A stretch of 64,000 nt of DNA from Escherichia coli (GTDB lineage: Bacteria; Pseudomonadota; Gammaproteobacteria; Enterobacterales; Enterobacteriaceae). The stretch lies in the NCBI RefSeq assembly GCF_050320075.1, contig NZ_CP190018.1. One strand, written 5' to 3'. The translations under genes and the position numbers were made by a program. Positions 7,620 through 50,078 of the stretch are shown here, one piece after another (the stretch's first letter is position 1; each line of letters starts with the position of its first letter). The notes beneath the pieces are model-generated. The model was given only the letters and a program-made list of their open reading frames with translations. It was not told where the DNA came from and searched no databases.

Positions 7620-8333
7620 ATGAAGATTTTTTTGGAGAATCTTTATCATTCTGATTGCTATTTCCTGCCGATAAGAGATAACCAGCAAGACCTTGTCGGC
7701 GTTGAGTTAATTACCCATTTCTCCAGTGAAGATGGTACGGTTCGTATCCCGACGAGTCGGGTTATAGCGCAACTTACCGAGGAGCAACATTGGCAATTAT
7801 TTTCAGAGCAGTTGGAATTACTAAAATCATGCCAACACTTTTTTATTCAACATAAACTCTTTGCTTGGCTTAATTTAACGCCACAAGTGGCTACTTTATT
7901 ATTAGACAGGGATAATTACGCAGGCGAACTATTAAAATATCCGTTTATTGAACTGTTGATTAATGAGAATTACCCGCATCTCGATGAAGGAAAAGATAAT
8001 CGCGATCTTTTTTCCTTATCGCAAATGTATCCCCTTGTGTTAGGTAATTTGGGCGCAGGCAATAGCACAATGAAAGCGGTTTTTGATGGTCTTTTCACCC
8101 GCGTCATGCTGGATAAAAGTTTTATTCAGCAACAAATCACGCATCGCTCCTTCGAACCGTTTATTCGTGCGATCCAGGCGCAAATTTCCCCATGTTGCAA
8201 TTGCATCATCGCGGGGGGCATTGATACGCCAGAAATAATGGCACAGATTACCCCCTTTGATTTCCATGCTCTCCAGGGATGCCTGTGGCCTGCCGTTCCC
8301 ATAAATCAGATAACGACGTTGGTTCAGCGATAA
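7620..8333 (+). CDS. ydiV: anti-FlhDC factor, degenerate EAL-domain protein
   Basis: 237-aa ORF, AT-rich gene, matches YdiV. Confidence 0.88.
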   Translation: MKIFLENLYHSDCYFLPIRDNQQDLVGVELITHFSSEDGTVRIPTSRVIAQLTEEQHWQLFSEQLELLKSCQHFFIQHKLFAWLNLTPQVATLLLDRDNYAGELLKYPFIELLINENYPHLDEGKDNRDLFSLSQMYPLVLGNLGAGNSTMKAVFDGLFTRVMLDKSFIQQQITHRSFEPFIRAIQAQISPCCNCIIAGGIDTPEIMAQITPFDFHALQGCLWPAVPINQITTLVQR

Positions 8334-8356: not shown

Positions 8357-9832
<1,476 letters not shown>

Positions 9833-9835
9833 AGG

Positions 9836-10027
9836 CTACTTGGTCAACAGCAGCTTGCCAGCCTGAGTTTTACGGAGCAGATATTCTTGCCCGTCATGAT
9901 CGATAATCAGTTTGCCATCCGGACCTAACAGTGTCTGGCTGGTAATTCGCCGGATGGGCTGCGGGGAAGCGGTCTTGTGATTGGCATCCGTTTCAGGCGT
10001 GAGTTTTCTGCTATCCGTATAACGCAT
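9836..10027 (-). CDS. hemP: hemin uptake protein HemP-like small protein (YdiE)
   Basis: 63-aa product from ATG at 10027 ([12 protein letters not shown]...); ORF track extends to a TTG at 10054. Confidence 0.7.
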
Positions 10028-10049
10028 AAAAATTAATAATAATTGATAT

Positions 10050-10068
10050 AACAATGATTCTTATTATC
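10050..10068. promoter_or_regulatory. candidate Fur box upstream of hemP
   Basis: AACAATGATTCTTATTATC matches 14/19 of the Fur consensus GATAATGATAATCATTATC, 23-41 bp upstream of hemP ATG. Confidence 0.45.
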
Positions 10069-10157
10069 AATATTATGGCGGCCAGAGCAAGCAGTAATTT
10101 GTTGAGAAGACAACAAGTTGCGCAGAAATGCCCATTCCGTCAGGAATGGGCACGCAT

Positions 10158-11204
10158 TCAGAAGCGGCTATCTACCGCAGAGGCGAGTTTTTCGACCAGG
10201 CGTTCGGTATCTTCCCAGCCCAGACACGGGTCGGTAATCGATTGACCGTAAGTGAGCGGCTGACCGCCGACGATTTTTTGCGTTCCTTCGCGCAGGAAAC
10301 TTTCCGCCATAATTCCAGCAATCGCCGTAGAGCCATTGCGGATTTGCTGACAAATATCCTCACAAACTTCTAACTGGCGACGGTGCTGCTTCTGGCAGTT
10401 ACCGTGGCTGAAATCCACCACCAGATGTTCAGGTAAATCAAACTCGTGCAGCGTATCGCAGGCTGCGGCGATATCATCGGCATGATAATTCGGTTTTTTG
10501 CCGCCACGCATAATAATGTGGCCATACGGGTTGCCGCTGGTCTGATAGATGGTCATCTGACCGTTTTTGTCTGGCGAGAGGAACATATGGCTGGCGCGGG
10601 CTGCGCGGATAGCATCTACGGCAATCCGCGTGTTGCCATCGGTACCATTTTTAAAACCTACCGGACAGGAGAGTGCCGAAGCCATTTCACGGTGGATCTG
10701 ACTTTCGGTAGTACGTGCGCCAATCGCGCCCCAACTGATTAAATCAGCAATAAACTGACCGGTCACCATATCGAGGAACTCAGTCGCGGTAGGGACGCCC
10801 AGCTCATTTACCTGTAAAAGTAATTTGCGCGCCAGCTCCAGACCGTGATTTACCCGATAGCTGCCGTTTAAATCTGGATCGGAGATTAGCCCTTTCCAGC
10901 CGACAACAGTTCGTGGTTTTTCAAAATAGGTGCGCATTACGATTTCCAGCCGTGACTGGTACTGGTTGCGCAGCGACTGCAGACGGGTGGCGTACTCCAT
11001 TGCAGCGGTGAGATCGTGGATCGAGCAGGGGCCAATAATGACCAACAGTCGCTTATCTTCACCATTCAGTATTTTTTCAATTCTGCGGCGGGAGTCGGTG
11101 ACATGGGTGGCGACGCTAGGCGTTACGGGATACCGTAGCGCGAGTTCGGCGGGCGTTACCAGGCTCTCAATACGCGCAGTACGGAGTTCGTCAGTTCTGT
11201 TCAT
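10158..11204 (-). CDS. aroH: DAHP synthase, Trp-sensitive
   Basis: 348-aa ORF, class I DAHP synthase. Confidence 0.95.
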   Translation of the reverse strand: MNRTDELRTARIESLVTPAELALRYPVTPSVATHVTDSRRRIEKILNGEDKRLLVIIGPCSIHDLTAAMEYATRLQSLRNQYQSRLEIVMRTYFEKPRTVVGWKGLISDPDLNGSYRVNHGLELARKLLLQVNELGVPTATEFLDMVTGQFIADLISWGAIGARTTESQIHREMASALSCPVGFKNGTDGNTRIAVDAIRAARASHMFLSPDKNGQMTIYQTSGNPYGHIIMRGGKKPNYHADDIAAACDTLHEFDLPEHLVVDFSHGNCQKQHRRQLEVCEDICQQIRNGSTAIAGIMAESFLREGTQKIVGGQPLTYGQSITDPCLGWEDTERLVEKLASAVDSRF

Positions 11205-34975: not shown

Positions 34976-35193
34976 GAACGCTGCACTTTTTTACCTATCT
35001 CTTAAATAGTCATTTTCAATACAACTTTTTCTTTTTCATCACAGCCTTAATGCTCCTTAGATAATAATCATTATCTAACAATGAGATACCTAATTCTTAG
35101 CGTGCCTGTTAACCCACACATCAGGGTCTATGCTTATTAAAAGCAGGAAAAAAGCATGTTTTACGGTAAAGCCCCTGCGTTTGCTGGGTTGAA

Positions 35194-35212
35194 CTGATAA
35201 TCATTATCACTA
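35194..35212. promoter_or_regulatory. Fur box in suf operon promoter
   Basis: TGATAATCATTATCAC, close match to the Fur consensus core, 45-60 bp upstream of sufA ATG. Confidence 0.65.
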
Positions 35213-44708: not shown

Positions 44709-44948
44709 CCATTCAGGATGAGGCGATAAGCTTCATCCTGATATTCTTGCTTCAGTTGCGGTCCAGTTAATCATTCTAAATAACAACTGCTGAAATTATA
44801 CGAATTTCGGTATGTATTTTAATTTATAGCGATAATGTTATTTTTATTTTCTGCAATGAACGTCACAAATAATTGTCGCTTAAGTTAAATTTATTTCAAA
44901 TGATAATAAATATCAGTTCACTTATAATTTCTTGCTTTGTAATTTTAA

Positions 44949-49296: not shown

Positions 49297-50078
49297 ACCC
49301 GTCGCAACATGCTGAACAGTTTCAGAGCCAGTTGGCGAACTATGTGCCACAGTTCACTCCCCAATTTTGGCCGGTGTGGTTGATCATTGCCGGACTATTG
49401 CTGGTAGGGATGTGGTTTGTGCTGGGGCTGCATGCCTTGCTTCGTGCTCGTGGCGTGAAGAAATCAGCCACCGACCATGGTGAGAAGGTTTATCTTTACA
49501 GCAAAGCGGTCAGATTATGGCACTGGTCGAATGCGTTACTCTTTGTATTGTTGCTGGCAAGTGGGCTGATAAATCACTTTGCGCTGGTGGGCGCAACTGC
49601 GGTTAAAAGTCTGGTTGCGGTGCATGAAGTTTGCGGATTTTTGTTACTGGCATGTTGGCTCGGCTTTGTTCTGATCAATGCCGTTGGGGGTAATGGTCAC
49701 CATTATCGCATTCGTCGTCAGGGGTGGCTGGAGCGAGCGGCAAAACAAACGCGATTCTATTTGTTTGGCATTATGCAGGGGGAAGAACATCCTTTCCCGG
49801 CAACAACACAGTCTAAATTTAATCCCTTACAGCAGGTTGCCTATATTGGTGTCATGTATGGATTGCTGCCGTTGTTACTATTGACGGGGCTGCTGTGTCT
49901 CTATCCGCAAGCCGTGGGAGATGTGTTTCCTGGCGTAAGATACTGGTTATTGCAGGCGCATTTTGCTCTGGCATTTATAAGCCTCTTTTTTATCTTCGGT
50001 CATCTTTATCTTTGCACCACGGGGCGTACGCCACACGAAACCTTTAAAAGCATGGTCGATGGCTATCACCGGCACTAA
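49293..50078 (+). CDS. ydhU: membrane cytochrome b-like subunit (PhsC/NrfD-like)
   Basis: 261-aa polytopic membrane ORF, ATGA overlap with ydhX. Confidence 0.85.
   Translation: MNPSQHAEQFQSQLANYVPQFTPQFWPVWLIIAGLLLVGMWFVLGLHALLRARGVKKSATDHGEKVYLYSKAVRLWHWSNALLFVLLLASGLINHFALVGATAVKSLVAVHEVCGFLLLACWLGFVLINAVGGNGHHYRIRRQGWLERAAKQTRFYLFGIMQGEEHPFPATTQSKFNPLQQVAYIGVMYGLLPLLLLTGLLCLYPQAVGDVFPGVRYWLLQAHFALAFISLFFIFGHLYLCTTGRTPHETFKSMVDGYHRH

Follow-up and report, generated by a model that had tools for sequence, protein, structure and literature searches.

Does the AT-rich DNA in front of hemP (ydiE) carry a genuine Fur operator that places the gene under iron control, or does it only resemble one? 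A preliminary description of the window, by which we mean the whole 64,000-nucleotide stretch of DNA analysed here, had pointed to a candidate Fur box between aroH and hemP and had suggested iron-responsive control. We conclude with high confidence that the AT-rich stretch 5′ of hemP is a real Fur site and a Fur-repressed promoter, a conclusion for which the experiments all come from other E. coli strains.

The window belongs to the E. coli chromosome; of 5426 complete genomes of this species, 5422 match a 451-bp query that spans the site. The genes and the spacer under study are arranged as follows.

8396-9832, plus strand: selO (ydiU), with a Pfam SelO match.
9836-10027, minus strand: hemP (ydiE) coding sequence, 63 aa, ATG at 10027; an open reading frame annotated by RefSeq as 'hemin uptake protein HemP' on identical sequence and matched by Pfam.
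10028-10157: aroH-hemP intergenic spacer, 130 bp.
10158-11204, minus strand: aroH (Trp-sensitive DAHP synthase), upstream of hemP; supported by the open reading frame, annotation and Pfam DAHP_synth_1.

Reading along the minus strand, hemP lies directly downstream of aroH, as had been described. HemP matches PF10636 with 55.9 bits (cut-off 25; E = 3.7e-15) through residues 27-63, which cover the full 37-position model. The E. coli gene stands by itself, flanked by aroH and convergent selO, and does not head a haem-uptake operon, unlike those of characterised family members; this setting bears on the inferred function of the protein and not on the Fur-box finding. selO ends at 9832 and the stop codon of the convergent hemP occupies 9836-9838. 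With only 3 nt separating the two ends, the transcripts must overlap at their 3′ ends, and the ydiE-selO pair is an excludon candidate in PMC12288877. An Rfam scan of 9700-10400 (E<=1) returned no RNA family, so no known sRNA or riboswitch lies in the spacer.

The composition of the spacer is uneven. It had been called very AT-rich over all 130 bp, which holds for 10028-10076 (10% GC) and fails for the spacer as a whole, at 36% GC against 50% window-wide. The remainder, 10077-10157, has 52% GC and contains a hairpin.

10130-10151, minus strand: terminator-like hairpin of aroH, GCCCATTCC-TGAC-GGAATGGGC, just past the aroH stop codon.

This structure has a minimum free energy of -24.6 kcal/mol (z = -4.7), equally good folds arise in 0 of 200 shuffles, and its stem is kept across the 13 aligned loci described below. 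Its tail, ATTTCTGC, is weak, with 4 T in 8, and a consensus scan made no terminator call; the Citrobacter hairpin tail is poorer still. The aroH 3′ hairpin looks like the aroH terminator. At the opposite end of the spacer, the hemP leader (10028-10047) is nearly pure A/T, ATTATTATTAATTTTT. It is partly conserved, overlaps weak Fur-like sites, and contains no Shine-Dalgarno-like purine run in these 20 nt 5′ of the hemP ATG.

Within the AT-rich half, the 19-mer that had drawn attention, AACAATGATTCTTATTATC, was found once, at 10050-10068 on the plus strand. It agrees with the Fur consensus GATAATGATAATCATTATC at 14 of 19 positions, exactly as first counted, and the minus strand does one better.

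10050-10068, minus strand (the strand of hemP): classic-register 19-bp Fur box GATAATAAGAATCATTGTT, reverse complement of AACAATGATTCTTATTATC, 15/19.

Consensus matches of at least 15/19 occur at 6 strand-positions in the window, compared with 0.13 in dinucleotide shuffles. When the 49-bp AT-rich tract alone is shuffled, 15/19 is reached in 0.4% (mononucleotide) or 1.25% (dinucleotide) of cases. A match through chance is unlikely. The local shuffles also bear on a different explanation, in which an AT-rich promoter region bound by H-NS happens to resemble a Fur box and Fur has no direct role. A tract of 10% GC does raise the odds of matching an AT-rich consensus, to the point that 0.4-1.3% of local shuffles reach 15/19, and Shimada 2014 flags H-NS at the aroH-ydiE spacer.

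A weight matrix gives a sharper measure. We trained it on 12 footprinted or gel-shifted E. coli Fur sites that are independent of the hemP locus (fhuA, fepA-fes, fepD-entS, entC, gpmA, yoeA, cirA, exbB, ryhB, sodA, fecI and fhuF), taking site centres from Chen 2007 Table 4 (PMC2189734) and converting them to NC_000913.3 via annotated gene starts. The resulting symmetric matrix has the consensus AATGATAATAATTATCATT and 20 bits of information. Such a scan had been proposed as a check on the candidate box; it returns two strong overlapping sites, of 17.5 and 16.2 bits, and a series of weaker ones, none assigned to a strand.

10053-10071: best Fur site by the matrix, ATTGATAATAAGAATCATT, in 9-1-9 register, centre 10062; 17.5 bits.
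10047-10065: second Fur site, overlapping the first and 6 bp downstream; 16.2 bits.
10035-10053: weaker Fur-like site; 8.5 bits.
10032-10050: weaker Fur-like site; 10.5 bits.
10025-10043: weaker Fur-like site; 6.6 bits.

With starts at 10053, 10047, 10035, 10032 and 10025, these sites form a cluster with offsets of 6 or 3 bp, the weaker ones together crossing the 5′ leader as far as the start codon. The two strong hemP sites rank third and fourth by matrix score in the 64-kb window, behind the sufA and ydhY clusters, and 0.095 sites of at least 16 bits are expected per simulated window. When the local AT tract is shuffled 20000 times, two sites of this strength arise together in only 12 cases, which argues against AT-richness or H-NS binding as the origin of the match. 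In leave-one-out scoring the training sites reach 18.3-27.9 bits, a range just above both hemP scores; the hemP operator is therefore good but not top-strength.

The two higher-ranking sites, at sufA and ydhY, provide a measure of how the matrix performs; two further positions are listed alongside the sufA box.

35193-35211: sufA promoter Fur box, about 50-60 bp upstream of sufA; 16/19, the window's best consensus match, and 19.8 bits.
35057-35078 and 35002-35020: positions noted together with the sufA promoter Fur box.
44899-44917: site between ydhY and fumD, AATGATAATAAATATCAGT; 20.8 bits, the window's top matrix score.

The sufA site at 35193-35211 maps exactly onto the Fur cluster and the ChIP-exo peak published for sufA; 44899-44917 coincides with the 'ydhY -255' cluster predicted in Chen 2007. 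With this exact agreement, the two sites act as positive controls for the matrix within the window itself. No MG1655 ChIP-exo Fur peak is listed at 44899-44917; ydhV and ydhY belong to the Fur-2 iModulon. Another Fur-like site, with 15.7 bits, is found at 7632-7650, where it overlaps the beginning of the ydiV open reading frame (7620-8333). For both MG1655 and W3110, published ChIP-exo data include Fur peaks attributed to ydiV; the one in W3110 falls no more than a few bases away from 7632-7650. The ydiV frame is intact in the window (237 aa) and frameshifted in BL21, and an IS1 insertion interrupts it in strain CFSAN061763, which matches the window at 100% identity across the hemP region. We rejected one candidate, the near-perfect palindrome GGTAATGGTCACCATTATC at 49689-49707. 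It scores 15/19 to the classic consensus, sits in a GC-rich context with no nearby MG1655 ChIP-exo peak, and is not among the 25 best matrix hits; its match is probably chance.

Conservation across genera points in the same direction as the scans. A scan for HemP relatives, with one genome per species, returned 13 loci, 12 of them usable and all downstream of aroH, and we aligned 13 hemP upstream regions from Escherichia, Citrobacter and Salmonella. Past the aroH hairpin, the first 40-90 bp are divergent in both sequence and length. CTTG is then invariant in 13/13, followed by a variable spacer and by the box core TTGATAATAAnAATCATTGT, which is again invariant in all 13 promoters; in the leader, an ATTnTTnnTAA block is partly conserved. 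The orthologous best site in most Citrobacter and in both Salmonella loci is ATTGATAATAATAATCATT, at 22.9 bits. What is kept across the three genera is the exact box and not just AT content, a second observation against the AT-richness and H-NS explanation.

The published record on Fur speaks to binding and to regulation. From the Fur box through the ATG, K-12 is identical to the window base for base, so published K-12 Fur results transfer directly. Chen 2007 (PMC2189734) places ydiE among the 42 strongest predicted E. coli Fur clusters and cites earlier microarray evidence; its Table 4 entry, from an information-theory model, gives 20.1 bits and 10 sites over 53 bp, centred -35 from the ATG. 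The corresponding coordinate, 1787602, converts to 10062 in the window, where our best matrix site is also centred, and our weaker sites toward the start codon are consistent with that 10-site, 53-bp cluster. Gao 2023 (PMC10164565) reports an MG1655 Fur ChIP-exo peak for ydiE (P53, 1787605-1787617, NC_000913.2) classed 'R', iron-replete only, which maps to window positions of about 10047-10059. According to the same study, the ydiE peak is also found in the earlier Seo data set, a matching peak is found in W3110, and ydiE-assigned peaks occur in the study's other strains too. Beauchene 2015 does not mention ydiE.

Regulation follows binding in these data. Gao 2023 (PMC10164565) lists ydiE as one of 36 core Fur-regulon genes common to nine E. 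coli strains, with Δfur/WT log2 fold changes by RNA-seq of 2.87, 8.14, 5.24, 2.91, 7.08, -1.10, 3.20, 2.23 and 5.16, among them +2.87 in MG1655, +8.14 in W3110 and -1.10 in BL21. The rise in Δfur is given as 7- to 280-fold, BL21 being the exception (PMC10164565). Expression of hemP in a fur mutant had been named as a check on the candidate, and this RNA-seq supplies it: ydiE is up by log2 2.2-8.1 in 8 of 9 strains. Likewise, Salmonella ydiE (STM1346) is 7.4-fold derepressed in Δfur, carries a predicted box, and has earlier Fur-titration work cited for it. Fur-dependent regulation of hemP, the point on which the original proposal depended, is therefore present in published data; Fur and iron-responsive control is borne out jointly by the matrix, the conservation, the ChIP-exo and the Δfur results. 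With an iron-replete ChIP-exo peak on the site and derepression in 8 of 9 Δfur strains, an AT-rich, H-NS-bound region in which Fur plays no direct part becomes exceedingly improbable.

BL21 differs from the window near the operator. In BL21(DE3), a T-to-A change lies immediately 5′ of the strongest Fur 19-mer (CCATAAAATTGATAAT), aligned to window position 10072. This change does not obviously account for the reversed ydiE response in that strain: it is one base outside the best 19-mer, and no matrix score above 5 bits is altered by it.

Fur could also act at a different step. hemP might be expressed mainly by read-through from aroH, with Fur serving as a roadblock to elongating polymerase and not as a block to initiation. 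The two genes are co-directional and 130 bp apart, and the aroH hairpin, with a T-tail of only 4 T in 8, went uncalled by the terminator scan. Against this, in wild-type MG1655 the abundance of aroH (about 275 units) exceeds that of ydiE (about 11) approximately 25-fold, and deletion of fur takes aroH slightly down (log2 fold change -0.48) while ydiE rises 7-fold (PMC10164565). The differences in both abundance and Δfur response indicate that the genes are uncoupled, with hemP insulated and transcribed from a separate promoter under Fur control. Shimada 2014 detected binding of RNA polymerase holoenzyme within the spacer, and promoter-like elements are conserved beside the box. Expression mainly through read-through is therefore very improbable.

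Where the hemP promoter lies within the spacer is suggested by two candidate hexamers.

10063-10068, minus strand: putative -10-like hexamer GATAAT, within the Fur box and invariant in 13 loci.
10085-10090, minus strand: putative -35-like hexamer TTGCTC, its CTTG invariant in 13 loci and its flanking spacer divergent.

The arrangement TTG-17-GATAAT is found in all 12 related loci, in K-12 and in BL21; the window alone has 16 nt (10069-10084). From this pattern we infer a hemP promoter with a TTGCnn -35 and a GATAAT -10, whose start would fall at about 10055-10058, so that the Fur sites would lie over the -10 and the start point. A literature search found no published transcription start site for ydiE. 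A simple sigma-70 scan called no promoter on the minus strand. Its sole call was promoter-like sequence on the plus strand at 10048-10076, which we attribute to the palindromic, AT-rich nature of the box. CATAAT/TAATAT, just upstream of the box, was considered as a -10 and rejected: it has no acceptable -35 at 16-18 nt and is not conserved.

A different geometry comes from Shimada 2014, in which a genomic SELEX experiment with RpoD holoenzyme assigned a 'constitutive promoter', TTGATA-16-TATCAA, to the aroH-ydiE spacer. Here Fur would still regulate hemP, with the -35 TTGATA at 10066-10071 and the -10 TATCAA at 10044-10049, and the strong Fur sites would cover the -35 and spacer in place of the -10 and start site. 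TTGATA is invariant in the 13-locus alignment, as expected from its position inside the Fur box. The proposed -10 is not conserved, aligning with AACCAA, AACTGA, AATTGA and GTTTGA in Citrobacter and Salmonella, and TATCAA lacks the final T of a -10, whereas TTG-17-GATAAT holds in sequence and spacing in 12 of 13 loci. We consider the SELEX-derived geometry unlikely, and either placement would put Fur on core promoter elements. All the alternatives considered are weak, and the two that invoke AT-richness with H-NS or read-through are contradicted by published data.

We propose that the AT-rich segment 10028-10076 acts as the hemP promoter and is covered by the cluster of overlapping Fur operators. 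In iron-sufficient cells, Fe2+-Fur dimers would occupy 10053-10071 and 10047-10065, and Fur probably spreads over the weaker sites toward the start codon. Fur lying over the -10 hexamer and the start would exclude RNA polymerase and turn hemP off, the occlusion step being deduced from this overlap. Iron scarcity would release Fur, and hemP would then be transcribed from its own promoter, as it would be in a fur mutant. In the GC-richer upstream half of the spacer, the aroH 3′ hairpin would separate hemP from aroH transcription. The sites, their conservation, the occupancy confined to iron-replete cells and the Fur-dependent repression on which this model draws are established here or in published data.

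The window carries an uncommon version of this promoter. Relative to K-12, its -35/-10 spacer is one base shorter and has one substitution (CTGGCC-GCC versus CTGGTCAGCC), and there is one substitution at the aroH 3′ end. Of 5389 E. coli genomes, only 171 (~3%) have exactly this 73-nt promoter allele. It is conceivable, and in our judgement improbable, that the 16-nt spacer allele, or the AU-rich leader that lacks a Shine-Dalgarno sequence and is overlapped by Fur-like sites up to the start codon, makes hemP in this lineage differ in its basal expression or in its response to iron. If true, this would amount to strain-level rewiring of a core Fur regulon member, comparable to the reversed response reported for BL21, and not to a new kind of element.

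The hemP Fur operator is already published and the promoter itself is nothing new, so the finding matters little beyond correct annotation. Given that hemP belongs to the 36-gene core Fur regulon, spotting its operator by eye confirms that sequence reading catches real regulatory sites. Elsewhere, homologues of the HemP/HmuP family are small proteins that bind haem and regulate haem-receptor genes, and in one screen YdiE overexpression protected BL21 against phage T5.

Several known systems frame this locus. The closest is the K-12 ydiE (b1705) promoter, the same locus and the one for which the Fur cluster, the ChIP-exo peak and the induction in Δfur were published. Salmonella enterica ydiE (STM1346) and Citrobacter hemP share the gene order after the aroH hairpin, the box core and the TTG-17-GATAAT arrangement. 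Their box is nearer to consensus (22.9 bits for ATTGATAATAATAATCATT versus 17.5 in the window), and their HemP differs from that of E. coli in its N-terminal half and in the position of its start codon. In Yersinia enterocolitica, the hemPRSTUV cluster (hem-1, hem-2) contains a HemP-family gene with a Fur-repressed promoter about 40 bp upstream and a Fur box at the -10; there hemP opens a haem-uptake operon, whereas the E. coli gene stands alone, convergent with selO. Within the window itself, the sigma-70 promoter of sufA is overlain by a classical Fur operator, which the consensus and matrix scans also picked up and which is bound in the same ChIP-exo set. Its Fur box, described in the literature as integrated with other regulators, scores above that of hemP, at 19.8 bits and 16/19.
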